A DNA stretch of 64,000 nucleotides, taken from NCBI GenBank assembly GCA_963977015.1, contig CAXBMO010000006.1, positions 160,001-224,000 on the forward strand. Reading direction: 5' to 3'. Below, one piece after another: positions 4,879 through 59,970 of the stretch. How positions within the stretch are numbered: the first letter of the stretch is position 1; each line of letters begins with the position of its first letter. Source of the stretch: an uncultured bacterium. Lineage in GTDB: Bacteria; Verrucomicrobiota; Verrucomicrobiia; Verrucomicrobiales; DEV007. Below the pieces are notes generated by a model. It saw only the letters and a program-made list of their open reading frames with translations. It did not search any database and was not told the DNA's origin. A program made the translations under genes and the position numbers.

Positions 4879-4883
4879 TTTTT

Positions 4884-11294: not shown

Positions 11295-11297
11295 GTC

Positions 11298-11720: not shown

Positions 11721-11747
11721 GGAAACACCCATCCGAAACTTCCAACC

Positions 11748-11951: not shown

Positions 11952-11983
11952 TCGCACGCGGCCACCCCTGACCTATACTTCCC

Positions 11984-12184: not shown

Positions 12185-12225
12185 TTGTGTGAGACTGGCT
12201 GGGAAGCCTCAATTGATTTAGTAAA

Positions 12226-13020: not shown

Positions 13021-13113
13021 TCTTTTCGTTGGGGATGAGACGGCCCGGGAACTCCTGGGGCTGACACTCATGATCCAAACCCGCGCGAGGCATGATGCTC
13101 GGGCTGTTGAACT

Positions 13114-14974: not shown

Positions 14975-14985
14975 CATGGTTGGCG

Positions 14986-15498
14986 ATGGAGCCATTCGAA
15001 CTCAATACGGAGCGCCTCCAATTGCGTCACCTCGGCTTGGACGACTTTGACGCGATGCGCGAGATCCAGGGCGACGACGAAACGATGAGTTTCTACGGTG
15101 GTGCGTTTTGTTCCGAGAAAACCACGAACTGGATCGAACGAAGTCTCGCTTCCTACGCAGAAAACGGATTTGGGCTCTGGGCCGTCATTCATCGCCAGGA
15201 AGCGCGCTTGGTGGGGCTGTGCGGAATCACCTATCAACTTATCGATGGGGAGCAAATCCCCGAAATCGGTTATCAGTTCAATCGCAACTATTGGGGGCGG
15301 GGTCTCGCCACGGAAGCGGCGATCGCCTGTCGAGATCATGGATTCACGGAACTGCGCTTCCCGAGGTTGGTGTCGTGGATGGCGCCGGACAACTTTCCCT
15401 CCCGCCGGGTCGCCGAACGTGTCGGAATGACGATGTGGAAGGAAGTCATCAATTCCAAAACCGGAACTCCCCATGTGGTCTACGCGATCGAGCCATGA
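14986..15498 (+). CDS. GNAT N-acetyltransferase (RimJ/RimL family)
   Basis: ATG at 14986, TERLQLR, GFGLWAV, EIGY...YWGRGLATEAA, N.PSRRVAERVGM. Confidence 0.9.
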   Translation: MEPFELNTERLQLRHLGLDDFDAMREIQGDDETMSFYGGAFCSEKTTNWIERSLASYAENGFGLWAVIHRQEARLVGLCGITYQLIDGEQIPEIGYQFNRNYWGRGLATEAAIACRDHGFTELRFPRLVSWMAPDNFPSRRVAERVGMTMWKEVINSKTGTPHVVYAIEP

Positions 15499-18445: not shown

Positions 18446-18639
18446 CGTTCGGGAAATAGACTGCCGAGAACTATTGGAAATTCAACTGCTCTTAACTACT
18501 TTAGAGTGAAGCGCATCGTAAGTTGGATCGCCGATTTGGGGCCACAACCTCAGCCGCCAATTCCTCGAGGCGGCCAAGCCTAACGGAGCACCTGACTAAA
18601 ATAGGTCGAAAAGTTAGAGACGAACTTCTTGCGCACAAT

Positions 18640-19233
18640 TCAAGCGGCCGGGACACATCGCCCTGTCAGGAAGGAGACGTGGATTTTCACGGTCGCGGCG
18701 AGGAGCTGCTCGAGTTCCGCAACCTCCTTCACCGAATACTTCAACTCCGCGGTCGAGACCGCGATCAAGCGGGCCACCAGCTCAATTCCCAATCCCGCCT
18801 TGGCCAGGGCGTCCCGGTTCGTCTCCGGGTCGGAGCGAATGGCATCCGCGAGCTGTTCTTCGAACATTTTCAGCATCCGCTTGCGGAGATCGGGGGCGAA
18901 GGAGTAAACGAAATCCAGAAGTTCCTGCGATTCGGGGCTGGTTTGGATCAGTTTGAAGGGGGCCAGGATCCAGGCATCGAGAATGGCCGTCATCCTGGCT
19001 TCCATTCCGGAGCATTGACTGGCGTTCTCCTGCGCCTCCTGAAACGAATGGTCGATCTTCCGGGTGATCACAGCTCTGAGGATCTCTTCCTTATTGCAGT
19101 AGACCAAGTAGACGGAGGGACGCGACATCCCGGCACCGCGGGCGATGTCGCCCATGGTGGCTTTCTTGAAGCCGTAACGGAGGAACACCTCCTGGGCGGC
19201 ATCGAGAATTTTGCACTGTTTTTCGGAATCCAA
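18640..19233 (-). CDS. TetR/AcrR family transcriptional regulator
   Basis: ILDAAQEVFLRYGFKKATMGDIARGAGMSRPSVYLVY.NKEEI HTH. Divergent from the RND operon. Start taken at TTG 19233 (GTG 19242 possible). Confidence 0.9.
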   Translation of the reverse strand: MDSEKQCKILDAAQEVFLRYGFKKATMGDIARGAGMSRPSVYLVYCNKEEILRAVITRKIDHSFQEAQENASQCSGMEARMTAILDAWILAPFKLIQTSPESQELLDFVYSFAPDLRKRMLKMFEEQLADAIRSDPETNRDALAKAGLGIELVARLIAVSTAELKYSVKEVAELEQLLAATVKIHVSFLTGRCVPAA

Positions 19234-19243
19234 GAAAAACACG

Positions 19244-19268
19244 TTGACACTTTTTGGTAAAGTGTCAA
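19244..19268. promoter_or_regulatory. Putative TetR operator 1
   Basis: Perfect 10-bp inverted repeat TTGACACTTT-TTGGT-AAAGTGTCAA in the divergent intergenic region. Confidence 0.75.
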
Positions 19269-31589: not shown

Positions 31590-34500
31590 ATGAACACTTG
31601 CCGCAATTTTACCACCTTACTTACCTGTTTTGCGCTTCTTCAATCGCCACTCGCCGTGGCAAATCCTGCCAATGGCATCATCAAGTTCGGCGATGGCGAA
31701 ATTAACTTCGACACTGAGAACGCAGTCTTCATCCACCAGGATTCCGACAAACTCATCATCGACTGGGAATCTTTCTCCATCGATCCCGGCGAACTGACGA
31801 AATTCCTTCAGCCCAATTCCTCCTCTGCGGCTCTGAACCGCGTTTTCTCGGGCGATCCCAGCGCGATCCACGGACAATTGCAGGCCAATGGCCGCGTTCT
31901 GCTCCTTAACCCGAACGGAATCCTCGTCGGCCCCAACGGCCAAATCGACACCGCCGGCTTTGTCGCGTCCACCCTCAACCTCAGCGATTCCGACTTCCTC
32001 GACGGTGGCGACATGACCTTTTTCGGCAATTCAACCGCAGCCGTTACCAACCTCGGCACGATCAACGCCATCGATGGCGGCGACATTTTCCTCATCGCCC
32101 GTGAAGTCCGCAACGCCGGAACCCTCAACGCGCCCGAAGGCACTGTCGGGATGGCCGCCGGCTCCGAAGTCGTCATCGCAGCCGAGGGCGAGGAGCGCAT
32201 TCTCATCACGCCCGATGGGCAGAACGCGTCCGTCACCAACGAAGGCGTGGTCCGCGCCGCGACTGCCGAACTCAAAGCCGCGGGCGGCAATCCCTACGCC
32301 CTCGCCATCAACAACACCGGCCTGGTTCGCGCCACCAAGTTCCAAAATCGCGGCGGTAAGCTCTACCTCTCGGCTTCCGGCGGCCGCATCGTCAATTCCG
32401 GATCGTTGCGGGCCAGCTCCAGCGTCTCGATTCGCCAAACCGGCCAGTCGGGCGATGTCGAAATCGGCGGTTCGGCCACCGCCCAGGATGAAATCACCGG
32501 GAACGGCGGAGAGGTCGAGATTTCCGGCCCCAACGTCGCGCTGTTGCCCGGTTCCAGCGTTAACGCATCGGGCAATGAGGCCGGGCAAGTCGCGATTCGG
32601 GCCACCGTCATCGGCGGCAAGACGCAAATCGGTGGCTCGGTGGCCGCATCAGCCTCGGCCGGCGATGGCGGACTGGTCAGCGTCACTGGTGAAACGATCG
32701 AAGTCAGCCCGACCGGGCGGATCGAGGCAAACGGCGCGCAAAACGGCGGTCTCCTCATGCTCGGCGTCAATCCAGCCGCTCCCTCCACCGAAATTCCGAC
32801 GAATTCCGCTGCGCTCGCTGCGAGTTCGCTCCTTTCCGCCAACGGCGGCGCAGGAAACGGGGGCGATGTCCTCCTTTTCGGAACCGGCGATGGCGAAATG
32901 TCGCTCGGCGGCATGATTCGAGTCAATGGCGGGGGCGGAAACGGGGGCCAAATTGTCGCGATCGGCGGGGACATCACGGTTCAGCCGACCGCTTTGCTTC
33001 AGGCCAACGGAGAAATTGACGGCGGCTTCATCCAACTGGAAGGCGAAGGCGATGTCATCGTTGGCGGCCGCGTCGATGCGGCTGGAGCGGAGGGAAGCGG
33101 CGGCAGAATCGCGCTCGTCGGTGAAAACGTCACCCTCACCCAGACCGGCGTGATCGATGCGGGCGGTGAGACGGATGGCGGCTTCGTCTCGATACAAGGC
33201 GGCGAGGACGGAATTGTCTCCGTAGCCGGTCAAATTCGCGCGATCGGCCAAACTGGGGATGGCGGGATGATCCAAATCAACGGCGGCGACGTCGTTGTCG
33301 CGCAAACCGGCCTTCTCGATGTCTCGGGCGGCGCGAACGGCGGCTTCATCCAGGTCGAAGCGCAAAACAACGCCACCTTCAACGGCACGGCGCGTGCAAT
33401 CGGCGGCTCCGGCGATGGTGGCGTGGTGGAAGTTCTGGGCGAAAACGTGACGCTCGGCTCGACCGCGTTGATCGATGCCTCGGGCGGCGTCAACGGCGGC
33501 CAGGTGTTCGTCGGCGGCGGGCGCAAAGGCCGGGACCCGAATCGACGCAACGCGCAAAACACCACCGTGGCGAACGGCGCGCGGATCGTCGCGAACGGCG
33601 GTGAGGCGGGTGGTGAAGTGGTCCTCTGGGCCGATGGCGCGATGGATTTTCGGGGGAGTGTTGTAGCGGAAGATACCAAATCTTCCGGCAGTGGCTCTGA
33701 AACGTCGGAATTTTTCGCAAATTCCGCTACGGGCGAAGGCAGCGGCGGTTTCGTGGAAGTCTCCGGCCTCGAATACCTCAATTTCGCCGGCCACGTCGAT
33801 ACCGGGGGCGGCCAGCTGCTGCTGGATCCGTTCAACTACACCATCGGCGCGGCGGAAGCCGGAGCCATCGTCGCGGCGCTGGCCAACAACAACGTCACCA
33901 TCGACACGACGCAAGACGTCGGCGCGCAGGGCTCCAGCGGCAACGCGGCCGACACCGGGATCATCACCGTCAACTCCAACCTATTCTACGATTCGCCCAA
34001 CGACCTGACCTTCCTCGCGATGGCCGATCTCATCTTCAACGCCAGCGTCCAGAACCGCAACGACACGGATGGCGACATCAACCTCGTCGCCGGCTGGGAT
34101 GGGACTACGGCTTACAACACGGCCACCTTCGCAGCGGAAGATGTGACCAACACCACCGTCTTCGGCAACAACATGGGTTCCGTCTTCATCGGCACCGGCA
34201 ATCAGACTCAAGGCATCGCCGTCGGCAGCCGTAGCGGAGCGACGAATGCGTTCGGTTACGACGTGAATGTGCTGGGCGCGACCAACAGCGATGGCGATTC
34301 CGGAACGACCGGGGACAATACCCGCTTCGGTCACCTGGGCTTCCGAATCACCAATGGAACCAGCCTGGATGGGACCAATCTGGGCTCCAATGCCATCGTG
34401 GACGGCGACATCACCATCCACGCCATGAATAGCCTGTCCGCCATCGCGGGCAATGACGTCGATAATTATGCGAAGGTGGGTCACGTCGGTCCCGACCGGA

Positions 34501-36569
34501 GCGGGGATCGCGCCACCCCTGAAGCGGCCGCGAGTTCGGACATTGAGATCAGCACGGGAGGCGACATCGATTTCCGGGGTGGTTCAGGTATCAGCGCGAC
34601 GGCCCAGCTTGGCCAGGGAGGGGACGCCGCGAATGGCAATTTCACCGGAACGATCACCATCACAAGAGCCGGTGATCTCAACTTCTTGGCCGGAGATGGC
34701 AGCGCCGCCTACGTGCAACTGGGCAATGGAGGCTTTGCTCCCACTGGTTCAAGCGATCCCGTAGGCAACAAGAGCGGGACGATCCTGATTCTGGACGTGA
34801 ACGACATCCTCTTCATGGGCGGCGGGGGGAGAAACAGCTACACGCATCTCGGCAATGGCGGCCGGGCGGCCCGCGGGAACAATAGCGGCGACGTCACCAT
34901 TGTCAGCGCCAACGACATCATCTTTCAGGCGGGGACCGGGGATTTCTCCACGGCTTCGTTCGGCCAGCACGGGGGAAACGGCACGACGAACAACAGTGGG
35001 TCCGCAACCATCACTCGCGCTAGGGACATCCGCTTCATCGGAGGGAGCGGGATCGCGGCGTACGCCCATCTGGGTCAGGAATCCGGTTCGAGCGGCAACC
35101 AGAGCGGGGACGTGACCATCGGTAGCATCCGGGATCTGACCCTTCAGGGGGGCAGCGGTACGGGCAGCTACGTCAGACTGGGCCAGGGAGGCGCCGACAG
35201 TGGGCCCCACAGTGGGACCATTGAGATCGGCAGCGCCAGGGACATTTCTCTGCTCGGTGGCGCCGGATCAGATACGCTCGCCCTGATCGGGCACGGCAGC
35301 GATGAATCGTCCAATGGTCACGGGAGCATCTCGATCGGCTCCGCCCAGGATATCAGCCTCCTCGCCGGGGCGGGAGGCGCCCACGCCCAGATCGGGCACC
35401 TGGGCGTGGGCGCCCACAGCGGAGATGTCATGATTGGCCAGGTGAATGACGTCACGCTTCGCACGACGAATGATGAAGCCGAAGCTCGGATCGGGCATCA
35501 GTCCGGCGGCGTCACCGGGAACATTTCGATTCAGTCGGCTCGGGACATCGAACTCGACGCCAGCCAGACGACTCACGGGACTGCCCAGATCGGTCATGGA
35601 GGAAGCGGCGATCAGGGCGGCGACATCCTCATTGAGCGGGCCCGGAACCTGAGGGTCGCAGCAGGGGTGGGATCGACCAGGACCCAGTCGAAGAAAGGAA
35701 CCTCGTTCACCGTTCAGAACCCCAGCAACGCGAGCGTCGGTCATGGAGGAGGCAACGGGGATTCGGCAGCGAATGCGTCGGGCGAAATCACCGTCAACCT
35801 GACCGAAGATCTGGAAATGACGGCGACGACGCCCAACGTGGCGGGAACCCCACGCATCGGTCACAAAGCCGTCACCACGGTCAGTCGGGATATCACTGTG
35901 GAAGTTGGCGGTGACGCGACGCTTTCGCCCGAAGCCGTCATTGGCCATGTCCTCCAGCCAAGAGTCAGGGATATCGTGGACGGAACCTATGACAGTGGTG
36001 ATACGGATCTTCGCGTGGACGGCATCCTCACCGCCCGGGCGGGCGCACAGTTTGCCAGCTCCCCGAATGGAATGCTCAACGTGCAGGTCCCCAACCCGGC
36101 CAGCTTCCAGGCCGAAGCCGGAGTGCTCTTCAACGACCTGCCCTTCGGCGGCCCCGGCAGCCCGCTCCCCGGTGAATTACTGATTGTCCCTTTCGGTGGT
36201 GCAGGCGGCGGTGGAGATCCGCTTCCGAAGATGGGGAACCGCCCGACGACAAAGGACATTCCGCCGAGCCCCGCCACGGGCGGTGGTGGAACGATCTTCG
36301 TGGAAGAAGCGGGAGGCCAATTGCCGCCGCTCCTGCGCCCTTTCGATCCGGTTTTCGAGCAGGAATCTTTTGGTTTCGACAACCCGGTGGAGTTCGTTCC
36401 CGGGTTGGATGACGACTCGGTGAGGCTCATCCCCGACACGTTCGTTCCACCCCCAGATCCGCAAACCACCCCCGAAACCGGTTCCGGCCCCGAGTTGTTG
36501 CCCGAGGAAGGCATGCAACAGAGCCTGAGCAGCGGCGAAGAGAAGGAAGAAACGGAGGCGGACGAATGA
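31590..36569 (+). CDS. Two-partner secretion exoprotein TpsA (filamentous haemagglutinin N-terminal domain)
   Basis: Signal peptide, IIDWESFSI, ALNRV...PS.I.GQLQANG.V.LLNPNGIL.G, Gly-rich beta-helix repeats, GGFVEVSG, LLLDP. Confidence 0.92.
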   Translation: MNTCRNFTTLLTCFALLQSPLAVANPANGIIKFGDGEINFDTENAVFIHQDSDKLIIDWESFSIDPGELTKFLQPNSSSAALNRVFSGDPSAIHGQLQANGRVLLLNPNGILVGPNGQIDTAGFVASTLNLSDSDFLDGGDMTFFGNSTAAVTNLGTINAIDGGDIFLIAREVRNAGTLNAPEGTVGMAAGSEVVIAAEGEERILITPDGQNASVTNEGVVRAATAELKAAGGNPYALAINNTGLVRATKFQNRGGKLYLSASGGRIVNSGSLRASSSVSIRQTGQSGDVEIGGSATAQDEITGNGGEVEISGPNVALLPGSSVNASGNEAGQVAIRATVIGGKTQIGGSVAASASAGDGGLVSVTGETIEVSPTGRIEANGAQNGGLLMLGVNPAAPSTEIPTNSAALAASSLLSANGGAGNGGDVLLFGTGDGEMSLGGMIRVNGGGGNGGQIVAIGGDITVQPTALLQANGEIDGGFIQLEGEGDVIVGGRVDAAGAEGSGGRIALVGENVTLTQTGVIDAGGETDGGFVSIQGGEDGIVSVAGQIRAIGQTGDGGMIQINGGDVVVAQTGLLDVSGGANGGFIQVEAQNNATFNGTARAIGGSGDGGVVEVLGENVTLGSTALIDASGGVNGGQVFVGGGRKGRDPNRRNAQNTTVANGARIVANGGEAGGEVVLWADGAMDFRGSVVAEDTKSSGSGSETSEFFANSATGEGSGGFVEVSGLEYLNFAGHVDTGGGQLLLDPFNYTIGAAEAGAIVAALANNNVTIDTTQDVGAQGSSGNAADTGIITVNSNLFYDSPNDLTFLAMADLIFNASVQNRNDTDGDINLVAGWDGTTAYNTATFAAEDVTNTTVFGNNMGSVFIGTGNQTQGIAVGSRSGATNAFGYDVNVLGATNSDGDSGTTGDNTRFGHLGFRITNGTSLDGTNLGSNAIVDGDITIHAMNSLSAIAGNDVDNYAKVGHVGPDRSGDRATPEAAASSDIEISTGGDIDFRGGSGISATAQLGQGGDAANGNFTGTITITRAGDLNFLAGDGSAAYVQLGNGGFAPTGSSDPVGNKSGTILILDVNDILFMGGGGRNSYTHLGNGGRAARGNNSGDVTIVSANDIIFQAGTGDFSTASFGQHGGNGTTNNSGSATITRARDIRFIGGSGIAAYAHLGQESGSSGNQSGDVTIGSIRDLTLQGGSGTGSYVRLGQGGADSGPHSGTIEIGSARDISLLGGAGSDTLALIGHGSDESSNGHGSISIGSAQDISLLAGAGGAHAQIGHLGVGAHSGDVMIGQVNDVTLRTTNDEAEARIGHQSGGVTGNISIQSARDIELDASQTTHGTAQIGHGGSGDQGGDILIERARNLRVAAGVGSTRTQSKKGTSFTVQNPSNASVGHGGGNGDSAANASGEITVNLTEDLEMTATTPNVAGTPRIGHKAVTTVSRDITVEVGGDATLSPEAVIGHVLQPRVRDIVDGTYDSGDTDLRVDGILTARAGAQFASSPNGMLNVQVPNPASFQAEAGVLFNDLPFGGPGSPLPGELLIVPFGGAGGGGDPLPKMGNRPTTKDIPPSPATGGGGTIFVEEAGGQLPPLLRPFDPVFEQESFGFDNPVEFVPGLDDDSVRLIPDTFVPPPDPQTTPETGSGPELLPEEGMQQSLSSGEEKEETEADE

Positions 36570-36719
36570 AGACACCCCAAGCGCTGATTTCCGGGTTGCT
36601 TCATCCTCCCGCATCGTTAACAATCCGCCAACACTCACAAACATCCCAATCCGCCCTGGTGGATTGACCTTTTTAGAAACCTTCCAAGGTACGTTCACGC
36701 GCACCCTCAACCTAGCCTT

Positions 36720-38492
36720 GTGAAACACTGTCTGCCCACGCACACGCCGGGCCGCTTTCGAATTGCGGTCCTCTTATTCTCGTTTTTCTCCACTGCCGGG
36801 ATGATCTCGGCGCAGGATATCGAACGCCTGAAACCACGCGTTCCCGAGGTCGAGGCGACCGCACCGGTTGCCGAGGTTGCGGATTCGGACGCGGGTGGCT
36901 CGCCAGCAAGCGCTGACGACGAGGTTTTGGGCACGATTCACGGCATCACTTTGATCGGCCATCCGGATCTGGCCTCGAAAGACACGCCGCCAAACGTGAA
37001 AGGCGTCGAGGTTCTGGACGAGGAGTTGGTCGCGCCCGAAAGCGTGCTCACGGCGCTGGAACCGTTCATCGGCGGCCCGCTGAGCGTGAAAACGATCCAG
37101 GATTTGAGCCAAACCACGGTGAAAGCCTACCGCGAGGCGGACATGCCGGTGGTCGATGTCGGGTTCCCCGAGCAAAACGTGAGCACGGGCGTCCTGCAGC
37201 TCGTCGTCGTGGTCGGCAAAGCGGGGGAAATCACGGTGGAAGGCAATCAACACTTCAAAGACCGGATTTACCTGCGCAGTTTCCGCACCCAAACCGGCGA
37301 TGTGTTGCGGCAGAGCGTGGTGTTGGAGGACCTGAAGTATCTCAACCGCAGCCGTTACCGCCAGGTCCGCGCCAACTACACGCCGGGCGAGGATTTTGGG
37401 GAGGCGGACGTGGTTTTGGAGGCGGAGGAGCGTTTCCCCTTCAGCGCCTACGCCGGTTACGAGGATACGGGCAACGAGTTGATCGGCATCGACCGGCTGC
37501 TTTTCGGGTTGGAATGGGGCAATGTGTTCGGTTGGGACCACAGCCTGGCCTATCAATACACCACGGTGACCGAATTTGACGGGTTGCACGGCCATGCCTG
37601 GATTTACCGCATTCCGATTCCGCGCTGGCGTCACGAATTCCGCGTTTTGGGTGCCTACGTGACCTCCGACGCCTCGTTTCAAGCGGCGGGCGAGACCCTG
37701 AACACCGGTGGCCAAAGCGTCCAGATTACTCCGGCCTACATCATCCCGCTGCCGGATTTGTTCGGCTACGAGCAAGAGTTGAGCGCCGCGTTCGATTTCA
37801 AGAGCACGAACAACGACCTGGAATTCGGCGGCGCGCAGGTGATTGATTCGACCGCGGAGGTGTCTCAGTTCTCGCTCGGTCAAACCCTGACGAAAACCAC
37901 CAAACTCGGCCGTCAGTTGATTAGCAACCGGCTGGTGTGGAGTCCCGGCGAGCTGAGCAACCACAACAGCGACGATGCGTTCCAGGAACTGCGCGGCCTG
38001 GGGTCGGCGGATTATTTCTACTGGAGCGGCGAGTTCACCCAGGTCATCGACCTGCCGCAAGGATTCACTTTTGTGGGCGATTTGGAAGCGCAACTCAGCA
38101 CGCAAAATCTTTTGCCGAGCGAGACGCTGGTTCTGGGCGGGGCGACCTCGGTCCGTGGCTTCGAGCAAAACATCACCCGGGCCGATCAGGGGCTGATTTT
38201 GAACCTGGAGCTGTATTCGCCGGTGATTCGCCCGCTGGAAATGGTGGGAATCGATCAAGCCAACGACCGTTTCCGGGCTTTCGCGTTTTTCGACTACGCG
38301 ACCGCGAGCAACGTCAATCTACTCCCCGGCGAGGGAGATGGGATTCACCTGGGCGGAGCGGGATTGGGCCTGGACTACCAACTCTTCCAGCATCTCAGTC
38401 TCCGCGCGGCCCATGCCTGGCAGGTGAGCCAAAGCGGGTTTGAGGACGACCAAAACGCGCGCTGGCACTTGTCTGGGACGGTAAGGTGGTGA
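36720..38492 (+). CDS. TpsB transporter (ShlB/FhaC/HecB family)
   Basis: POTRA-like region (YRE...PEQNV..GVL), SVRGF loop-6 motif, FFDY, C-terminal aromatic beta-strand ending W. Confidence 0.9.
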   Translation: MKHCLPTHTPGRFRIAVLLFSFFSTAGMISAQDIERLKPRVPEVEATAPVAEVADSDAGGSPASADDEVLGTIHGITLIGHPDLASKDTPPNVKGVEVLDEELVAPESVLTALEPFIGGPLSVKTIQDLSQTTVKAYREADMPVVDVGFPEQNVSTGVLQLVVVVGKAGEITVEGNQHFKDRIYLRSFRTQTGDVLRQSVVLEDLKYLNRSRYRQVRANYTPGEDFGEADVVLEAEERFPFSAYAGYEDTGNELIGIDRLLFGLEWGNVFGWDHSLAYQYTTVTEFDGLHGHAWIYRIPIPRWRHEFRVLGAYVTSDASFQAAGETLNTGGQSVQITPAYIIPLPDLFGYEQELSAAFDFKSTNNDLEFGGAQVIDSTAEVSQFSLGQTLTKTTKLGRQLISNRLVWSPGELSNHNSDDAFQELRGLGSADYFYWSGEFTQVIDLPQGFTFVGDLEAQLSTQNLLPSETLVLGGATSVRGFEQNITRADQGLILNLELYSPVIRPLEMVGIDQANDRFRAFAFFDYATASNVNLLPGEGDGIHLGGAGLGLDYQLFQHLSLRAAHAWQVSQSGFEDDQNARWHLSGTVRW

Positions 38493-48835: not shown

Positions 48836-48879
48836 TTGCAGAACGCAAGGTCACGGCACCAAGGCTTTGCATTGTGCAA
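48836..48879. promoter_or_regulatory. Paired TTGCR-N3-YGCAA boxes (putative enhancer) upstream of dodecin
   Basis: TTGCAGAACGCAA (48836-48848) and TTGCATTGTGCAA (48867-48879), 31 bp start to start. Confidence 0.65.
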
Positions 48880-48933
48880 TGCGTCGGCGGCTCTCGGGGA
48901 CGAGAAGGCGTGATAAATTGAGAGGATTTGGGT

Positions 48934-48949
48934 TGGAATGCCTCCTGCT
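48934..48949 (+). promoter_or_regulatory. Putative sigma54 -24/-12 promoter (dodecin-aconitase)
   Basis: TGGAATG-CCTC-CTGCT with exact GG-N10-GC spacing, 12 bp before ATG 48962. Confidence 0.6.
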
Positions 48950-48961
48950 CGGCAAGGTGGT

Positions 48962-49171
48962 ATGAATGATCACGTTTACAAAAAGATCGAGATTGTCGGC
49001 AGTTCACAGAACGGTGTCGATGACGCCATTCGCAATGCCATTACCCGGGCATCGGAGAGTATTCACAACCTGCGCTGGTTCGAGGTCGCGGAGATCCGGG
49101 GAGATATTCGCGACGGGAAGCCGGCCCACTGTCAAGTGACCCTCAAGATTGGTTTCACCCTGGATGAATAA
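48962..49171 (+). CDS. Dodecin (flavin-binding protein)
   Basis: MNDHVYKKIEIVGSS, DAIRNAI.RA, LRWFEV.EIRG, QVTLKIGF. Confidence 0.95.
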   Translation: MNDHVYKKIEIVGSSQNGVDDAIRNAITRASESIHNLRWFEVAEIRGDIRDGKPAHCQVTLKIGFTLDE

Positions 49172-49176
49172 GCGCC

Positions 49177-51117
49177 ATGCCCGAAAACCTGACTCATAAA
49201 CTGATACGCAGTCATCTCATCGACGGCACCATGAAGCCGGGTGAGGAGATCGCTCTACGCATCGACCAAACTCTGACCCAGGACGCAACGGGAACGCTGG
49301 TGATGCTGGAGTTCGAGGCCATGAACGTGGATCGCGTCCGAGCGGAGTTGTCGGCGCAATACGTCGATCACAACCTGTTGCAGGAAGATCACAAGAACCC
49401 GGATGACCACCTGTTTCTCTGGAGCGCGTGTCGAAAGTTCGGCGTGCAATATAGCCCGCCGGGAAACGGGGTGAGTCATCCGGTGCACATGGAGCGCTTC
49501 GGAATTCCGGGCAAGACGTTGGTGGGCTCCGATAGCCATACTCCGGCCGCGGGTTCGCTGGGGATGCTGGCCTTCGGCGCGGGCGGAGTGGAGGTGGCGC
49601 TGGCGATGGCGGGCGAGCCTTTGTACCTCGTGATGCCGGAAGTGTGGGGCGTGAGGCTGACCGGAGAGTTGCCCCCGTGGGTCAGTGCCAAGGACGTGGT
49701 TCTGGAGATGTTGCGTCGTCACGACGTCGATGGAGGCGTGGGGCGCATTGTGGAATATTACGGACCGGGCCTGGATTCGCTTTCGGCGATGGATCGGCAC
49801 GTGATCGCCAACATGGGCACGGAATTGGGTGCGACGACAACGGTGTTCCCTTCCGACGGGGTGGTGAAAGATTTCCTCCGGCAACAGGAGCGTGAGGACG
49901 ATTGGCAGGAATGGGTGGCGGACCATGGAGCGGAATACGATGTGAAGGAAGAGATCGATCTCTCGACGCTTGAACCGCTGATTGCCTGCCCGTCCAGCCC
50001 GGGCAAGGTCGTTCCGGTGCGCGAGGTCGCCGGGCGCGAGATCTACCAGACCTATATCGGTTCGTCCGCCAATCCGGGGCTGCGCGACTTCGCGGTGCCC
50101 GCCATGATGGTGGATGGACGACAAATCTGTAAGAGCGTTTCTTTTGATGTGAACCCGACCTCTCGCCAGCTCTTGGACAATCTGGTTGAGCTTTCCTATC
50201 TGGGAAAACTGATCCGGGCGGGAGCGCGCATCCATCAGGCTGGCTGCAATGGTTGCATTGGCATGGGGCAGGCGCCTGCGACCGGTCGCATCAGCCTGCG
50301 GACTGTTCCGCGCAATTTTCCGGGGCGCTCCGGTACCCGTGAAGACCAGGTTTATCTCTGTAGTCCGGAAACCGCCGCGGCATCGGCCTTGACGGGAAGA
50401 ATCACGGATCCGCGCGAGTTGGATATGCCGTATCCCGAATGGCGGGAACCGGAGGAAATCCGCGTTCATCGCTCCATGATGGACGCCCCGGAAACTGCGG
50501 AGAAAGCGGTGAAGGTTGAGCTCATCAAAGGGCCCAATGTTGCGTCTTTGCCCAAACTCGAGCCGCTCCCGGAGACGTTGGAAGGGCCGGTCTTGTTGAA
50601 AGTGGGTGATGATATATCGACGGACGAAATCATGCCGGCGGGAGCGCGGGTTCTGCCGTTCCGGAGTAATATCCCGAAGATGAGTGAGTTCGTCTTTGAA
50701 GGTGTCGACCCGGGTTATGTAGAGCGCGCCCTGGAATATCAGAAGAGCGGTTCGCTCATTGTGGCGGGAGACAACTACGGTCAGGGTTCCAGCCGCGAAC
50801 ACGCGGCGCTGGCGCCTCGGTTTCTAGGCCTCCGTGCTGTCATTGCAAAGAGTTTCGCCCGAATCCACTGGCAGAACCTGGCGAATTTCGGGATTCTTCC
50901 GCTCACCTTCGTCGATCCGCAGGACTATGATGCGATCGAAGACGGCGATCAGTTGAAGATCGAAGGGATCCGCGAGATCCTGCAACAAGGCGGGGATGAC
51001 GCGATTACCGTGCGCAATAATACCAAAAACACGACCTTCGAAGCGCGGCATCGCCTGAGTAGCCGGCAGCGCAAAATGATCCTCGCGGGCAGTATCCTGG
51101 CCACGGTGGATTCCTGA
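49177..51117 (+). CDS. Aconitate hydratase, short type
   Basis: QDATGT, DHN, GSDSHT, GCNGCIG, RNFPGRSG, YLCSPETAAA, ISTDEI, NYGQGSSREHAA, KSFARIH. First Fe-S Cys motif reads IGSSAN. Confidence 0.9.
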   Translation: MPENLTHKLIRSHLIDGTMKPGEEIALRIDQTLTQDATGTLVMLEFEAMNVDRVRAELSAQYVDHNLLQEDHKNPDDHLFLWSACRKFGVQYSPPGNGVSHPVHMERFGIPGKTLVGSDSHTPAAGSLGMLAFGAGGVEVALAMAGEPLYLVMPEVWGVRLTGELPPWVSAKDVVLEMLRRHDVDGGVGRIVEYYGPGLDSLSAMDRHVIANMGTELGATTTVFPSDGVVKDFLRQQEREDDWQEWVADHGAEYDVKEEIDLSTLEPLIACPSSPGKVVPVREVAGREIYQTYIGSSANPGLRDFAVPAMMVDGRQICKSVSFDVNPTSRQLLDNLVELSYLGKLIRAGARIHQAGCNGCIGMGQAPATGRISLRTVPRNFPGRSGTREDQVYLCSPETAAASALTGRITDPRELDMPYPEWREPEEIRVHRSMMDAPETAEKAVKVELIKGPNVASLPKLEPLPETLEGPVLLKVGDDISTDEIMPAGARVLPFRSNIPKMSEFVFEGVDPGYVERALEYQKSGSLIVAGDNYGQGSSREHAALAPRFLGLRAVIAKSFARIHWQNLANFGILPLTFVDPQDYDAIEDGDQLKIEGIREILQQGGDDAITVRNNTKNTTFEARHRLSSRQRKMILAGSILATVDS

Positions 51118-51125
51118 GCGCAGGG

Positions 51126-51160
51126 ATGCGTTCCGCAAGGCGATCCATTGCGACTTGCAA
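51126..51160. promoter_or_regulatory. Paired TTGCR-N3-YGCAA boxes upstream of PA2169-like gene
   Basis: ATGCGTTCCGCAA (51126-51138) and TTGCGACTTGCAA (51148-51160). Confidence 0.62.
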
Positions 51161-51192
51161 GGCTCTCGCGATCGATTCTCCGGAAAGCGGGT

Positions 51193-51208
51193 TGGCACGA
51201 GATTTGCA
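51193..51208 (+). promoter_or_regulatory. Sigma54 -24/-12 promoter
   Basis: TGGCACG-AGAT-TTGCA, a perfect match to the TGGCACG-N4-TTGCW consensus. Confidence 0.85.
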
Positions 51209-51221
51209 CTTCTATCCTATT

Positions 51222-51686
51222 ATGACGACTTCAACCCTTATCGATAAAGACCGCTGCATCGGAGTTTGCAACAATCTGCTTCAAGGTGAGCGCTCGGCGG
51301 TGGAGACCTATACCCTGGTGCTCAAGAAATTCAGCGCCAATGGAGCTGCCCCTGAACTGACACGTCTCCGCAACGAACATGCCGCAGCGGTGAGGCAATT
51401 GGAAGACAACGTCCGCCAAATGGGTGGCGTTCCGGATTCCGGCTCGGGCTTGTGGGGCAAATTTGCCAAATCGGTCGAGCGGGCGGCGCAACTGTTCGGC
51501 GCGGAATCGGCCATGGCGGCTCTCCAACTTGGCGAGGCTCACGGACGGGTTCAATACCAGCAGGCTTTGGAGGACGAAAGCGTATTGCCGGAATGCAAGG
51601 AGATGATCAGCACTTGTCTATTTCCGCAGACAAAAGAGCACATCGCCACTCTGGAACGGTTGCAACACGGCGAGATGGCTCGCTGA
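51222..51686 (+). CDS. PA2169/DUF2383-like ferritin-fold four-helix bundle protein
   Basis: ATG at 51222, NNLLQGERSAVETY, H...L...VR..GG.P..SG.WG, L.LGE.HG...Y..AL.D. Confidence 0.8.
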   Translation: MTTSTLIDKDRCIGVCNNLLQGERSAVETYTLVLKKFSANGAAPELTRLRNEHAAAVRQLEDNVRQMGGVPDSGSGLWGKFAKSVERAAQLFGAESAMAALQLGEAHGRVQYQQALEDESVLPECKEMISTCLFPQTKEHIATLERLQHGEMAR

Positions 51687-51792
51687 ATCGAGAAAATTTC
51701 TACTTGGTGGTAGAACCGGTCCAGGCCGGCTGGCAAGGGAGCACTTGCTTGACTGGCCTGGATTCGGAGCCTGACATGCGCGAAGTTTGGAG

Positions 51793-53190
51793 ATGAATAC
51801 GACGCATCGCATCGAACGAGACTCCATGGGCGAGGTGGAAGTGCCGGCAGGATCGCTCTACGGCGCCTCAACCCAGCGCGCCATCCGGAACTTTCCCGTC
51901 AGCGGGCGCGGTTTCGGGCGTGGTTTGATCCGCGCCATCGGATTGGTCAAGCGAGCTTCCGCCGAGGCGAACTTCGCGCTCAGGAAGCTGGATGCGGGAC
52001 GCTACCAGGCGATCTGCCGATCTGCCGAAGACGTGATCGAGGGAAATTTGGACGAACACTTTGTCGTCGATGTCTTCCAAACCGGTTCCGGAACGAGCAC
52101 CAACATGAACGCCAATGAGGTGATCGCCAATCGTGCGTCCCAGTTGGCAGGGAAACCGCTGGGCGCGAAGGATCCCGTTCATCCCAACGATCACGTGAAC
52201 CTGGGGCAGTCCAGCAACGACGTGTTCCCCACCGCGATTCACATCGCCGCCGCGGAAACGCTCCAAAACCGGCTTCTGCCGGAACTCATCGCCCTGCAAC
52301 GCTCGCTGGAGACCAAATCGAGCGAATTCGACAAGGTGCTGAAGATCGGGCGAACCCATCTGATGGACGCGACTCCGATTCGCTTGGGCCAGGAGTTTTC
52401 CGGTTATGGGCGGCAAATGGAGAAAGCGGTCAAACGGGTCGAGGCCGCGACTGAGGCATTGCTGGAACTGCCGCTCGGTGGAACCGCCGTCGGGACGGGA
52501 CTCAACACCCATCCTGAATTCGCCGCAAAGGCGATCACCTTTATCGCGGAGCGAACGGGGCTGAAGTTTGTCGAAGCCGAAAACCATTTCGAAGCCCAGG
52601 GCGGGAGAGACGCGCTTTGCGAGGTAAGCGGTCAGTTGAAAACCGTCGCCGTGTCGCTGTTCAAGGTTGCCAACGATCTCCGCTGGATGGGGTCAGGGCC
52701 CCGGTGCGGTCTTGGCGAGCTCCGCCTTCCTGCCTTGCAGCCCGGAAGCTCGATCATGCCCGGCAAGGTAAACCCGGTGGTTTGCGAATCGGTCATGCAG
52801 GTTGCAGCACAGGTGGTTGGGAATGATGCAGCGATCACCTGGGGAGCGGCCAACGGCAATCTGGAGCTGAACGTGATGATGCCGATGATGGCCCGCAATG
52901 TTTTGGAAAGCGCCGAGTTGCTCGCCAACGTCAGTCGCATCTTCCGCGAAAACGTCATCGATGGTCTTGAGGCCGATGTGGAGCGGTGCCGGCAGATGGT
53001 GGAGCGTAGCATGGCTCTCGTGACCAGTCTCGTTCCGGAAATCGGCTACGACCGCAGCGCGGAAATTGCCCGGATCGCGTCTGAATCGGGCAAGACCATT
53101 CGGGAGGTGTGCGAAGAGTTGGAGGTTCTGCCGCCGGATCGACTGGCCGCGCTTCTCGACGGGACAACGATGACGATTCCCACCGGGTAG
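51793..53190 (+). CDS. fumC: Class II fumarate hydratase
   Basis: RIERDSMG, QTGSGTSTNMNANEV, HPNDHVN..QSSND, KIGRTHLMDATP, GSSIMPGKVNP signature. Confidence 0.95.
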   Translation: MNTTHRIERDSMGEVEVPAGSLYGASTQRAIRNFPVSGRGFGRGLIRAIGLVKRASAEANFALRKLDAGRYQAICRSAEDVIEGNLDEHFVVDVFQTGSGTSTNMNANEVIANRASQLAGKPLGAKDPVHPNDHVNLGQSSNDVFPTAIHIAAAETLQNRLLPELIALQRSLETKSSEFDKVLKIGRTHLMDATPIRLGQEFSGYGRQMEKAVKRVEAATEALLELPLGGTAVGTGLNTHPEFAAKAITFIAERTGLKFVEAENHFEAQGGRDALCEVSGQLKTVAVSLFKVANDLRWMGSGPRCGLGELRLPALQPGSSIMPGKVNPVVCESVMQVAAQVVGNDAAITWGAANGNLELNVMMPMMARNVLESAELLANVSRIFRENVIDGLEADVERCRQMVERSMALVTSLVPEIGYDRSAEIARIASESGKTIREVCEELEVLPPDRLAALLDGTTMTIPTG

Positions 53191-53217
53191 ACAGCGATTC
53201 GAGCAACGAAACCTCGT

Positions 53218-53973
53218 TCACTCCCAGTAGTAGGGCCGACCGTAGAAATCGTAGAGTTCCTCTTCGTAGGTGCGGTTGACGGGAACCTTGGGATCGAATG
53301 GTGGGGATGCCTGGATTTGGTCTTTGGTCAGGTTCACTTGAGCACACGAAGTTGCCCAGTCGAACTGACTCATCCAGTCGATGTCGATGATCACTTTGCG
53401 ACCGGGCAACCAGTGTCGGGTGGCCACGACAAAGTGGCGGATCCGCCAGGGACTGGTATCCAGAATCAGATCCTCGACGTGACCGATCTTGTCCTCGACC
53501 GAGGCGATCTGGTAGCCGATCACCTCTTTGGTGGAACGCAGATGGGTCTGCTCAATCTCGGCAATCGCTTCCTCGTGCCGTTCGACTTCTTCCGGCGATG
53601 GATCGATATGGGCATAGGCCGAAGCGCCCCACATATCGGCACCTATCCAGTAGGGCTCGTGGCCGTAGTATTCGGCGTATTCTTTCTCAAACCGCCGGGA
53701 GATGGGTTCGTCGGTTTCCAGCAGCGGGCTGGATTCCACCTGATCTTTCGTGAGGGTTACGGGAAAGCGATGGGCGTAAATTTTCGGGTCGGGCGGGACG
53801 AGATGACGCGGGCTGATGAGAACCTGGTGCGAACTGAGCCATCCCCCCGTGTCGGCCACGAGGTAGCGAATGCCCCACTTCTCGTCATCGAAAAGGAAAT
53901 CCTTCACCTTGCCGATATTTCCATCGGTCGCTTCGATCGGATAACCCAGTAAGTTTTTGATGCTTCGTAACAT
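53218..53973 (-). CDS. Tandem PRC-barrel domain protein
   Basis: MLRSIKNLLGY.IEATDG.IGKVKDFLFDD..W.IRYLVADTGGWL, repeated as HLRS.KEVIGY.I....IGHVED. Ends YGRPYYW. ATG at 53973. Confidence 0.9.
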   Translation of the reverse strand: MLRSIKNLLGYPIEATDGNIGKVKDFLFDDEKWGIRYLVADTGGWLSSHQVLISPRHLVPPDPKIYAHRFPVTLTKDQVESSPLLETDEPISRRFEKEYAEYYGHEPYWIGADMWGASAYAHIDPSPEEVERHEEAIAEIEQTHLRSTKEVIGYQIASVEDKIGHVEDLILDTSPWRIRHFVVATRHWLPGRKVIIDIDWMSQFDWATSCAQVNLTKDQIQASPPFDPKVPVNRTYEEELYDFYGRPYYWE

Positions 53974-54009
53974 AGTACTAGGGAGTTTCAGTGTTTTGAC
54001 TCTCTGTAT

Positions 54010-54025
54010 CGCGGGAATCGTGCCA
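54010..54025 (-). promoter_or_regulatory. Putative sigma54 promoter of PRC-barrel gene
   Basis: Minus strand reads TGGCACG-ATTC-CCGCG with exact GG-N10-GC spacing. Confidence 0.7.
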
Positions 54026-54068
54026 TTCCTCTCTTCCTGCGCTTCAGGATGGCGCCCGGGGCAATGGA

Positions 54069-54114
54069 TTGCACCCTGCACGAGTCTCTCCTCTTCAGTG
54101 CGTGCATTCTGCAA
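54069..54114. promoter_or_regulatory. Paired TTGCR-N3-YGCAA boxes upstream of PRC-barrel promoter
   Basis: TTGCACCCTGCAC (54069-54081) and GTGCATTCTGCAA (54102-54114), 33 bp start to start. Confidence 0.62.
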
Positions 54115-54260
54115 GGGCGCGATCGGCTGGTTCAAGGGATCGAGAGAGAAACTCCGAAGCATTTTTTATTATCCAGGGAATATACCAATGGAAGATGCGC
54201 TAAATCCTTTGACCATTCCCGTGAAGCGGCCCGTCTAAATGGTTCTAACCTCACAACGCT

Positions 54261-54770
54261 ATGATTAATCCCTACAACCTCGACCATATCCTGGAAGGCT
54301 GGGGTGAAGAAGGACTAGACCCCGTCACTCTCCGGGAACTGTGGAACAAAGCCACCGAGCCTCTCTTTGACGTTTTGGTCGTCGATGACGAACCGACGTT
54401 CACCCGGTTGGTAAAGTACAACCTCGAAGCGGATGGCCACTACCACGTGTTTTGTGAAAACGATGCACGCAAAGCTCTGTCCGATTGCCTGGACCTGTTG
54501 CCTGATGTCGTGCTGCTCGACTTGCGAATGCCTCAACTCGACGGCGAAGAAGTTTACCGGCAAATTCGGGAAAACCCGGCCCTGAACTGGCTGCCGGTCG
54601 TCAAGTTCTCTGCGGAACTCCCGGGCACCAGTCGTTTTTGCAAGAACCCGATCCTGGGTGAGGATGGCCATCTCATGCTGGCCAAACCGGCTTCCCTGGA
54701 CGAGATCAACCAAGCGATCCGGATGGAAATCCAGAACGCGCTGGAGGATCTCATTCTCGCCAACGAATAG
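54261..54770 (+). CDS. Single-domain response regulator (receiver)
   Basis: VLVVDDE, PDVVLLDLRMPQLDG, FSA, LAKP. No output domain. Confidence 0.85.
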   Translation: MINPYNLDHILEGWGEEGLDPVTLRELWNKATEPLFDVLVVDDEPTFTRLVKYNLEADGHYHVFCENDARKALSDCLDLLPDVVLLDLRMPQLDGEEVYRQIRENPALNWLPVVKFSAELPGTSRFCKNPILGEDGHLMLAKPASLDEINQAIRMEIQNALEDLILANE

Positions 54771-54898
54771 TCGATCCCAGGCCCTTTTGCTTTGTTCCGG
54801 TAACGTTTGAGAGCGGTTCGTTCTGCCAGTTCCGAGATCGGGGTCGTCGAACGAAATCTTGGTGGGTTGGAATTCGTCAGGACCTCGTCGATGGGGGC

Positions 54899-54914
54899 TG
54901 GCATGGTTCCTGCA
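54899..54914 (+). promoter_or_regulatory. Putative sigma54 promoter
   Basis: TGGCATG-GTTC-CTGCA with exact GG-N10-GC spacing, 33 bp before ATG 54948. Confidence 0.72.
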
Positions 54915-54947
54915 CCTTGTTACGGCTGAAACAACCTCTCATGATTT

Positions 54948-55214
54948 ATGGCTACCCAACCCAAACCGGAAACCGTTGTTCAGCAAATGAGCACTCACCT
55001 GTCGAAGTTCAAAGAGATGGCTCACCGTACCAGGGGGCGTTTGGAACGCCTCGCGGAGATGTCGTTTGAGATTGAAGACGAACTGAAACAGAAAGAATAC
55101 GCCGATCGCGTCAGCGAGCTTTTCACCATCTCCACGCAATTCGAGGAAAAATTGGACTCGTTGATCAACGATTACGAAATCGAGCGCAATCGCATCGCCA
55201 ACGAAGCGGCATAG
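54948..55214 (+). CDS. Small charged helical hypothetical protein
   Basis: 88 aa Glu/Lys/Arg-rich amphipathic helices. Fills the gap between genes and has a promoter upstream. Confidence 0.75.
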   Translation: MATQPKPETVVQQMSTHLSKFKEMAHRTRGRLERLAEMSFEIEDELKQKEYADRVSELFTISTQFEEKLDSLINDYEIERNRIANEAA

Positions 55215-55233
55215 CGCGCTCTGCAGTTCGCCA

Positions 55234-55265
55234 TTGCAGAACGCAACGATCATTGCAAACGGCAA
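55234..55265. promoter_or_regulatory. Paired TTGC-N5-GCAA boxes between 88-aa gene and site-2 protease
   Basis: TTGCAGAACGCAA (55234-55246, identical to 48836-48848) and TTGCAAACGGCAA (55253-55265). Confidence 0.6.
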
Positions 55266-55295: not shown

Positions 55296-56453
55296 ATGGC
55301 GTGGACATTTCCAGTCCTCCGAATTCTCGGCACCCAACTTCGGGTTCATGTGACCTTTTTTCTCCTGCTTGCCTGGGTGGGAATCGCCACCTATGCACAA
55401 AGCGGATGGGAAGGTGCGGTTTACGGCATTGCTTTTATCCTGGCGCTCTTTGTTTGCGTCATTCTCCACGAGTTTGGACACGCCTTGGCGGCCAAGGCAT
55501 TTGGAATATCCACGCCGGATATTACACTTCTGCCAATTGGAGGTCTCGCCCGGCTACAGCGAATGCCGCGCGATCCGATCAAGGAACTCGTGATCGCATT
55601 GGCGGGACCGGCTGTGAATGTGGTGATTGCTGGTCTGATCTTTCTTTTCCTGCGGATCAGCACCATTCCTTTGGCGATCGACCTGGAGGCACGGTCGATA
55701 TCCGGATTCTTCGTCAGTCTGATGGCGGTGAACGTGTGGCTCGTGATTTTCAACATGATCCCGGCCTTCCCGATGGATGGCGGACGGGCGCTGCGTGCGT
55801 TGCTGGCCACGGCGATGCCTCATTCCCGCGCAACGAATATTGCAGCGAGGATTGGTCAGGCTTTGGCCTTGGGCGGCGTGTTCGTTGGATTCATGAATCA
55901 ATGGTGGTTGCTGGTATTGGTCGCTTTCTTCATCTTTTTGGGGGCTGGGGCAGAGGCCTCTGCCTCCCGCCTGCGGGAAGCGACGCGGGGCCTCGCCGTT
56001 TCCGACGCGATGATGACGCGTTTCAAGATGCTGCGGGAGACGGATCCCATTTCCAAGGCGGTGGATCTGCTTCTCGATGGCTCGCAGACGGACTTCCCGA
56101 TCCTCGACGATCGAGATGAGCTGTCCGGAATGGTTCTGCGAAAGGACCTGATTAACGCACTGCGTAAGCATAGCGGGTCGGCGGCCGTGGTCGAAGCACG
56201 AAGCGGCTGCGAATTCGCGGTCGCGGCGGATTCGGCGCTGCCGGATGCGATGCAGATCCTTCAGGAGAGCCAACGCTCGACCATTCCGGTGATGTCCGGC
56301 GGTAGGCTGATCGGATTGCTCAGCACCAAGAACATTGGAGAGATGCTGATGGTGAAGGCCGCCAAGGACGAGAGGAGGAGATCGCATGAGGGCGAGCTTG
56401 ACGCGGGTGAGGTCGAATCCGGGCAGACCTTGATCGGTGGGCATTCCAGTTGA
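55296..56453 (+). CDS. Site-2 protease (M50) with tandem CBS domains
   Basis: ILHEFGH, ITLLPIGGLA, IALAGPAVN, FNMIPAFPMDGGR, C-terminal CBS pair. Confidence 0.93.
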   Translation: MAWTFPVLRILGTQLRVHVTFFLLLAWVGIATYAQSGWEGAVYGIAFILALFVCVILHEFGHALAAKAFGISTPDITLLPIGGLARLQRMPRDPIKELVIALAGPAVNVVIAGLIFLFLRISTIPLAIDLEARSISGFFVSLMAVNVWLVIFNMIPAFPMDGGRALRALLATAMPHSRATNIAARIGQALALGGVFVGFMNQWWLLVLVAFFIFLGAGAEASASRLREATRGLAVSDAMMTRFKMLRETDPISKAVDLLLDGSQTDFPILDDRDELSGMVLRKDLINALRKHSGSAAVVEARSGCEFAVAADSALPDAMQILQESQRSTIPVMSGGRLIGLLSTKNIGEMLMVKAAKDERRRSHEGELDAGEVESGQTLIGGHSS

Positions 56454-59259: not shown

Positions 59260-59763
59260 TCAGTTGGCGTTCGCTGCGGCGATGGCGTCTTGAGCCTGGC
59301 TGGCCGGTTTCGCGCTAAGATCGCGCCAGATCACTTTGCCGTCCCGAATCAGAAAACTTTGTCGGGACGCCAATCCTGGTCCCCGGGTTGGAACGCCAAA
59401 GGCTTCGATGACCTTGCCCTCTTTGTCCGCGAGAAGCGTAAAGGGAAGACTGAACTTGTCCGAAAACAGTTTTTGGTCGGTTACGGTGTCCGCACTCACG
59501 CCAAACACCTTGATTCCCGCCTTGGAAACGGCTTCGAACTCATCCCGAAGGTTGCAGGCCTGCTTGGTGCATCCGGGAGTGTCAGCCTTTGGATAAAAGT
59601 AGACCAGCGAGGTTCCCTCGGCCAATGCTTCGCCGAGATTGACCTCTGCGCCATTTTGATCGGTGGTTACTAATTGGGGGGCGCTGTCGCCGACATTCAG
59701 TGGCTCCGCCTGCAGGGCTGTAACTGATAGAATTGCGAGAAGAGAGAGGATTGGAATACGCAT
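59260..59763 (-). CDS. bcp: Peroxiredoxin (BCP/PrxQ) with signal peptide
   Basis: ATG at 59763, LNVGD.AP, YFYPKADTPGCTKQAC.LRD, GVSAD, LPFTLLAD, RQSFLI. Confidence 0.9.
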   Translation of the reverse strand: MRIPILSLLAILSVTALQAEPLNVGDSAPQLVTTDQNGAEVNLGEALAEGTSLVYFYPKADTPGCTKQACNLRDEFEAVSKAGIKVFGVSADTVTDQKLFSDKFSLPFTLLADKEGKVIEAFGVPTRGPGLASRQSFLIRDGKVIWRDLSAKPASQAQDAIAAANAN

Positions 59764-59970
59764 GGGATGGGTTTTTTTCGTGTGGGTAGTAGTCACCAAG
59801 GTTAGTATGACTTGGCTTCAATTTCCTTTCACCTGATCTCGACGCATTGGACAGGGTTTTTGTGATCTCGAGCGCGAAGATTGGTCGGCGTCACCGTGGC
59901 CCGTTCGTGAAAGTTTTGCTTTCGAGACGCGTGATAAAGCAAGACTATTCTGCAAAATAAAAAAGCACAG

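Follow-up and report, generated by a model that had tools for sequence, protein, structure and literature searches.

Transcription from sigma-54 promoters requires an ATPase activator. A close comparison for the locus described here is LuxO, an NtrC-family activator of Vibrio, whose enhancer site is the 13-bp motif TTGCAWWWTGCAA (PMC10162802) and whose sites in chromatin immunoprecipitation sequencing (ChIP-seq) are of the same 13-bp form (PMC10328515). In the Vibrionaceae, LuxO-type 13-bp inverted repeats, TTGCA-N3-TGCAA, are paired upstream of the -24/-12 promoter of qrr, the target being a small RNA. Broader points of reference are the sigma-54 regulome of Desulfovibrio vulgaris, in which upstream activating sequences (UAS) are mostly no more than about 100 nt away from the promoter (PMC4641369), and a 2025 survey of Planctomycetia with a position-specific scoring matrix (PSSM), which predicts sigma-54 promoters before chaperone, ATP-dependent protease, UspA and MscS genes (PMC12316311). 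Here we analyse a stretch of 64,000 nucleotides from an uncultured bacterium (contig CAXBMO010000006.1; the whole stretch is hereafter called the window). Between positions 48836 and 55265 it carries eight 13-bp palindromes, arranged in four pairs, and four -24/-12 promoter-like sites, P1 to P4 (Table 1). A mechanism of sigma-54 plus activator is reasonably supported by these sequence features for three transcription units, and sigma-54 together with one NtrC-family activator probably drives the units jointly, a stress, redox or energy cue being the most likely trigger.

Judged by its sequence, the window palindrome is of the architecture of a known NtrC-family (LuxO-type) recognition site. 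The first-pass annotation of this DNA had presented it as a recurring enhancer; as a motif it is not undescribed, given the published LuxO sites (PMC10162802, PMC10328515). Since LuxO binds palindromes of this kind in Vibrio, the locus would not represent a new mechanism; a new regulon of a well-known mechanism is plausible. All eight palindromes, recomputed from the sequence, are intergenic and stand, like the four GG-N10-GC sites, at the coordinates first reported. The consensus proposed for them, TTGCR-N3-YGCAA, is matched exactly by sites 1a, 1b, 2b and 4a; four exact matches in 64 kb compare with 0.50 expected, and four or more were reached in none of 100 shuffles. Sites 1a and 4a are identical, as had been claimed (TTGCAGAACGCAA). 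The remaining sites each break the consensus at one base (2a, A at position 1; 3a, C at position 13; 3b, G at position 1; 4b, G at position 9). One-mismatch palindromes as a class are at background level in the window (11 against 10.4 expected), and these four sites therefore count only through their pairing. The pairing itself is non-random: four pairs with a start-to-start distance of 15-40 bp were found (31, 22, 33 and 19 bp for pairs 1-4), against a mean of 0.04 and a maximum of 2 in 300 first-order Markov simulations. A PSSM built from the eight palindromes found no additional strong site anywhere in the 64-kb window.

The promoter-like sites were scored by their matches to the 11 positions of TGGCAC-N5-TTGCW. 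At all four, GG and GC are exactly 10 nt apart, and each site is oriented toward its gene and ends shortly before the start codon (13, 14, 37 and 34 nt for P1-P4). P2, previously called a perfect consensus, indeed scores 11/11. The pattern TGGCAY-N5-YTGCW has exact matches in the window only at P2 and P4, against 0.23 expected, and a simple scan of these intergenic regions found no sigma-70-like consensus promoter. The TGG of P1-P3 is separated from the end of the proximal palindrome by 54, 32 and 43 nt, respectively. This gap is compatible with the geometry of the D. vulgaris regulome, where most sigma-54 promoters are no more than 100 nt from the activator site (PMC4641369). A decamer at P1 (GGGTTGGAAT, 48930-48939) occurs again at 54864-54873, 35 nt upstream of P4, where it lacks a GC at the -12 position. 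A plus-strand candidate at 54065 (TGGATTGCACCCTGCA, 7/11) overlaps site 3a and was dismissed as a by-product of the palindrome, and a minus-strand candidate at 55276 (8/11), overlapping site 4b, faces no gene.

These features suggest the following mechanism. Three, perhaps four, -24/-12 promoters would serve the dodecin-aconitase unit, the DUF2383 gene (with or without fumC), the PRC-barrel gene, and the 88-aa open reading frame (ORF; with or without the M50 protease gene). At three of the four promoters, the two LuxO-type repeats, 22-33 bp or about 2-3 helical turns apart and 32-54 nt upstream of TGG, would each time be bound as a pair by one NtrC-family enhancer-binding protein with a Fis-type helix-turn-helix (HTH), encoded outside the window. 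Bound at the pair, the activator would assemble into an ATPase ring and, by DNA looping, remodel the closed sigma-54 holoenzyme complex. The dodecin, DUF2383, PRC-barrel and 88-aa units might thus be switched on jointly by one signal. From the gene content, this signal would be a stress, redox or energy-limitation cue, which is the weakest step of the scheme.

Table 1. Promoter-like sites, candidate UAS palindromes and genes of the region, in window coordinates.
Feature	Position	Strand	Sequence	Remarks
P1	48934..48949	+	TGGAATGCCTCCTGCT	8/11, weak; before dodecin gene
P2	51193..51208	+	TGGCACGAGATTTGCA	11/11, full sigma-54 consensus; before DUF2383 gene
P3	54010..54025	-	TGGCACGATTCCCGCG	8/11, perfect -24, poor -12; 37 nt before PRC-barrel ATG
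P4	54899..54914	+	TGGCATGGTTCCTGCA	9/11; exact to TGGCAY-N5-YTGCW; before 88-aa ORF
UAS site 1a	48836..48848		TTGCAGAACGCAA	exact; same as site 4a
UAS site 1b	48867..48879		TTGCATTGTGCAA	exact; 54 nt ahead of P1
UAS site 2a	51126..51138		ATGCGTTCCGCAA	1 mismatch
UAS site 2b	51148..51160		TTGCGACTTGCAA	exact; 32 nt ahead of P2
UAS site 3a	54069..54081		TTGCACCCTGCAC	1 mismatch; 43 nt upstream of P3
UAS site 3b	54102..54114		GTGCATTCTGCAA	1 mismatch
UAS site 4a	55234..55246		TTGCAGAACGCAA	exact; 319 nt downstream of P4
UAS site 4b	55253..55265		TTGCAAACGGCAA	1 mismatch; 30 nt before protease ATG
Dodecin, 69 aa	48962..49171	+		NCBIfam equivalog NF043052, residues 3-68 on profile 2-67 (end to end)
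Aconitate hydratase, 646 aa	49177..51117	+		PRK07229 type
DUF2383 / PA2169-family four-helix-bundle protein, 154 aa	51222..51686	+
Class II fumarase, fumC-like	51787..53190	+		likely ATG 51793
Protein with two PRC-barrel domains, 251 aa	53218..53973	-
Receiver-domain-only response regulator	54261..54770	+		no AAA+ or HTH domain; only nearby regulator
88-aa helical-hairpin protein	54948..55214	+		no family
M50 site-2-type metalloprotease with CBS domains	55296..56453	+

A scan of public genomes for the paired pattern further illuminated the link between such palindromes and sigma-54. It returned at least 121 loci, of which 115 had full flanks and were used in the sigma-54 test, with 433 pseudo-sites, shifted by 700-1500 bp within the same loci, as controls; the counts that follow apply to the matches listed. 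In 23/115 loci, against 17/433 controls, an outward-facing sigma-54-like site scoring at least 9/11 is present no more than 200 bp from the pair; raising the threshold to 10/11 gives 12/115 and 2/433. As a raw count, 25 pairs among the at least 121 loci have a sigma-54-like site. The sigma-54-positive loci span Vibrio, Clostridium, Acidobacteriota, Verrucomicrobiae, Syntrophales and Planctomycetota, and, as in the window, their pair spacings fall into two clusters, of 18-23 and 29-33 bp. The qrr loci of V. cholerae and V. cincinnatiensis were recovered too (L022, L078), and in both Rfam places Qrr directly after the sigma-54 site. The distance between pair and promoter is 75-94 nt in these two loci but 32-54 nt in the window, whose targets are protein-coding genes and whose host lies outside Vibrio. 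Among the sigma-54-positive loci with 2-kb flanks, 4 of 16 (L005, L073, L076, L080) have an activator gene (Sigma54_activat; three with HTH_8) adjoining the pair. NtrC/ZraR-family regulons are often local to the activator gene in this manner, whereas none is adjacent in the window. The same UAS type precedes differing small regulons, namely qrr, kdp, Nitro_FeMo-Co genes and CoA-transferase.

Some of these loci belong to Planctomycetota. The Planctomycetota share of the matches (21 titles among at least 121) was rejected as support, because 13 of the 21 are, by eye, (TTGCAAW)n heptamer arrays. Arrays of this type, often inverted around short intergenic stretches, occur in L003, L004, L012, L014, L032, L033 and L050 and, likewise in Planctomycetota, in L068, L097, L101, L110, L112 and L114; the repeat is distinct from the window palindromes. 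Five of the eight non-array Planctomycetota matches listed have an outward-facing sigma-54-like site (L041, L046, L076, L091, L118), that of L041 being doubtful at just 7 nt from the pair. L076 (Pirellulales) and L001 share a module of a TTGCATAATGCAA-type pair, a sigma-54-like promoter and a small protein with a Nitro_FeMo-Co domain (Pfam); L091 (Phycisphaerae) resembles it by N-terminal residues only. In L076 a PAS-AAA+-HTH_8 activator, a typical NtrC/ZraR-family member, lies directly beside the pair. The module suggests that Planctomycetota employ such a UAS type with sigma-54. It differs from the window in its A/T spacers (TTGCATAATGCAA), its targets and, in L076, its adjacent activator, none of which the window has. 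L046 (Pirellulales; 2001-2151) has a pair with an 18-nt gap like that of window pair 1, one of its sites being TTGCAGAACGCAA; 92 nt past the pair stands CGGCATTGGAGTTGCA, followed by kdpA. In L056 (Verrucomicrobiae; approximately 1868-2044), a pair is followed first by the sigma-54-like site CGGCACACCCATTGCT and next by a gene of the stress type, DUF892 (YciF-like, ferritin-like), with a histidine kinase and an OmpR-type regulator as neighbours.

Joint activation by sigma-54 and a LuxO-type activator has to be weighed against a series of observations that count against it. P1 and P3 score just 8/11, a value reached or exceeded by 67 sites in the window. These two promoters regain weight from their position, however, because only 5 of the 67 sites are intergenic, correctly oriented and no more than 50 nt from a start codon, and four of these five are P1-P4. 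(The fifth, TGGAAATTCAACTGCT at 18475-18490, scores 8/11 and lies 33 nt before a family-less 245-aa ORF, 18523-19260, with no palindromes near.) The earlier claim of four promoters thus stands for GG-N10-GC spacing, placement and orientation, and is weakened by the scores of two of them. The LuxO spacer consists of A/T only, whereas those of the eight palindromes are mixed (GAA, TTG, TTC, ACT, CCC, TTC, GAA, AAC), for which reason we regard the latter as working like a LuxO site and do not call them LuxO sites. The gap between UAS and promoter is shorter than in most other listed loci (mostly 65-126 nt), and tblastx found no listed locus orthologous to the window region among the at least 121 loci (the matches listed did not include the window's own genome). 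Neither rpoN nor a Sigma54_activat protein is found among the proteins of the 64-kb window, and the general-stress label comes from gene annotation alone. The leader lengths are a further difficulty. With the conserved GC taken as -13/-12, an established convention with an accuracy of about 2 nt, the predicted start sites are ~48960, ~51219, ~53999 (minus strand) and ~54925. Those at P1 and P2 leave leaders of 2-3 nt (about 2 for dodecin, 3 for DUF2383), and the predicted P1 start would cut off the Shine-Dalgarno (SD)-like AAGGTGG at 48953-48959; therefore, either P1 is doubtful or a second promoter is implied. At both promoters the start codon follows the -12 GC by 14-15 nt (48948-48962, 51207-51222) and the T of TGG by 28-29 nt. 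Strong sigma-54 sites in L001 and in three mutually orthologous loci of Acidobacteriota (L025, L026, L071) show the same TGG-to-ATG offset, so that near-leaderless mRNAs from sigma-54 promoters may be real.

The fourth unit fits least well. P4 has no upstream palindrome nearer than pair 3, which is 785 nt off. Pair 4 occupies the gap between the 88-aa ORF and the protease gene, 319 nt downstream from P4, and the 30 nt from this pair to the protease ATG contain no GG-N10-GC. Of the paired-enhancer scheme first proposed, the part concerning pairs 1-3 therefore stands, each preceding a promoter by 32-54 nt in a geometry that fits sigma-54 with an enhancer-binding protein, and pair 4, upstream of no sigma-54 site, falls outside it. 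Pair 4 could act on P4 as an enhancer from downstream; in D. vulgaris, UAS are occasionally found past the promoter, but nearer, at 40-70 bp, and the same study reports activator sites without sigma-54 promoters (PMC4641369). Alternatively, it could be an operator or part of a modest hairpin. An inverted repeat at 55216-55245 (TCTGCAGT ... ATTGCAGA), right after the stop codon of the 88-aa ORF, forms a hairpin that takes in the left half of site 4a.

Pair 4 leads to the question of whether the palindromes belong to sigma-54 promoters at all. They might be operators of a non-AAA+ regulator, for example of the HxlR or MarR type, at other promoters, with the GG-N10-GC sites partly coincidental. 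Among the listed paired loci, 92/115 have no sigma-54-like site, and two pairs (L064, L066) adjoin HxlR-type regulators, observations that also count against the sigma-54 mechanism and because of which the paired motif is not diagnostic, although it hints, suggestively, at an activator site. The weak scores of P1 and P3, the position of pair 4 right before the protease ATG without a -24/-12 site, and the SD-like sequence before the dodecin ATG, which implies a longer leader from another promoter, would all suit an operator. We nevertheless consider this quite unlikely, given two exact-consensus sigma-54 sites directly before genes where 0.23 are expected, an outward-facing -24/-12 site within 32-54 nt of three of the four pairs, the negative sigma-70-like scan of these intergenic regions, and a motif that is the same as the proven activator UAS of LuxO (PMC10162802, PMC10328515). 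That the pattern arose by chance, or that it reflects repeats (for example REP-like elements) or RNA structures (for example terminator hairpins) without a regulatory role, is highly improbable and disfavoured. Other Planctomycetota are rich in (TTGCAAW)n arrays that match the paired pattern, and the pair-4 region folds somewhat above shuffles (z = -2.41), but the window palindromes are not heptamer arrays, the folding of the other three UAS regions is unremarkable (z = -1.62, +0.34 and -1.67), the pairing is far above chance (4 against 0.04), and these intergenic regions contain no terminator-like site and no Rfam match.

If the sigma-54 mechanism is real, the size of the regulon is the next point of dispute. 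It may be a narrow module in which one specific signal controls iron- or oxidant-robust enzymes of the tricarboxylic acid (TCA) cycle together with flavin and metal helpers, a possibility that we put forward tentatively. Class II fumarase is Fe-independent, and two of the largest regulated genes encode TCA enzymes, aconitase and this fumarase. The motif is limited to 6.4 kb of the 64-kb window, and a peroxiredoxin gene at 59260-59799 has neither a sigma-54-like site within 150 nt upstream nor a strong palindrome. The small regulons behind the same UAS type in the listed loci (qrr, kdp, Nitro_FeMo-Co, CoA-transferase) point in the same direction. PRC-barrel, DUF2383 and dodecin, on the other hand, are not TCA functions, a single window is insufficient to gauge regulon size, and PRC-barrel genes belong to the general-stress regulon elsewhere, as exemplified by an EcfG-dependent one in Sphingomonas melonis (PMC6599016). 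On balance, a lineage-wide programme is no more likely than a narrow module for redox, iron or energy.

General-stress regulons typically include ferritin-like four-helix-bundle proteins. By annotation, PRC-barrel, DUF2383 and dodecin fit stress protection, and aconitase and fumarase are core metabolism. The likeness to the EcfG, SigB and RpoS regulons thus lies in the gene types (PRC-barrel and four-helix-bundle proteins). The regulation differs, because those systems use sigma-70-family factors freed by partner switching or proteolysis, whereas the promoter class of the window is sigma-54. It is unlikely that a LuxO-like activator and sigma-54 serve the lineage as its master switch for stress or stationary phase, in the role of RpoS, SigB or EcfG, and also drive near-leaderless mRNAs. 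To our knowledge, few regulons have been defined in Planctomycetota. Studholme and Dixon, in 2004, are said to have predicted a sigma-54 regulon in an in-silico study of Pirellula enhancer-binding proteins. The 2025 survey of Planctomycetia gives promoters only and no UAS in its accessible parts, whereas the window pairs both; as far as they are accessible, its eight supplementary files hold no entries for dodecin, aconitase, PRC-barrel, COG3360, COG0114 or COG1048 (PMC12316311). Literature searches found no description of such a regulon. The initial statement that none was known thus holds for the regulon itself, but has to be qualified in that the motif is LuxO-type and sigma-54 control of stress genes had already been predicted (PMC12316311).

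The gene identities assigned earlier were confirmed by Pfam and NCBIfam profiles, on which the assignments in Table 1 are based. The homologues of the aconitase share 70-76% identity across many phyla and thus give no indication of lineage. For the DUF2383 protein, 51222 is preferred over 51126 as the start, because its homologues are 144-154 aa long. The fumarase remains under the fumC_II equivalog cut-off, and its closest solved relatives are fumarases. The protein atlas was uninformative as to what the 88-aa protein does. The fumarase and PRC-barrel genes are convergent, with 27 nt between their stops (53191-53217) and no terminator-like structure detected there. Rfam and tRNA scans of the window revealed no RNA element and no Qrr. 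For plasmid-borne PRC-barrel homologues (25 records, 33-42% identity), inspection of six upstream regions revealed no clear sigma-54 or EcfG consensus. In two Sphingomonadales plasmids (L124, L127), the PRC-barrel ATG is preceded at about 70 nt by the shared sequence TTCCGGCCCTGC, which may be a conserved promoter element. Elsewhere, the window holds PSCyt/PSD/DUF1501 families, which are typical of Planctomycetota. Its left part (70-15000 and 31590-38492) also contains two terminal-oxidase sets (COX1/FixO/cytochrome c, and COX1-COX3-COX2 with CtaA/CtaB) and a two-partner secretion (TPS) pair consisting of a 1659-aa TPS-domain protein and a ShlB-type transporter.

If confirmed, joint control by sigma-54 and a LuxO-type activator would provide a testable handle on gene regulation in the source lineage, through its promoter class and its 13-bp enhancer site, and would define a small group of stress and TCA genes under common control. 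Beyond this locus, the occurrence of sigma-54-like sites at 23/115 pairs among the matches listed, in diverse phyla, suggests that, as a recognition motif for activators, the LuxO-type site is widespread well outside Vibrio. LuxO-type pairs may therefore be useful for annotating the sigma-54 regulons of uncultured bacteria.

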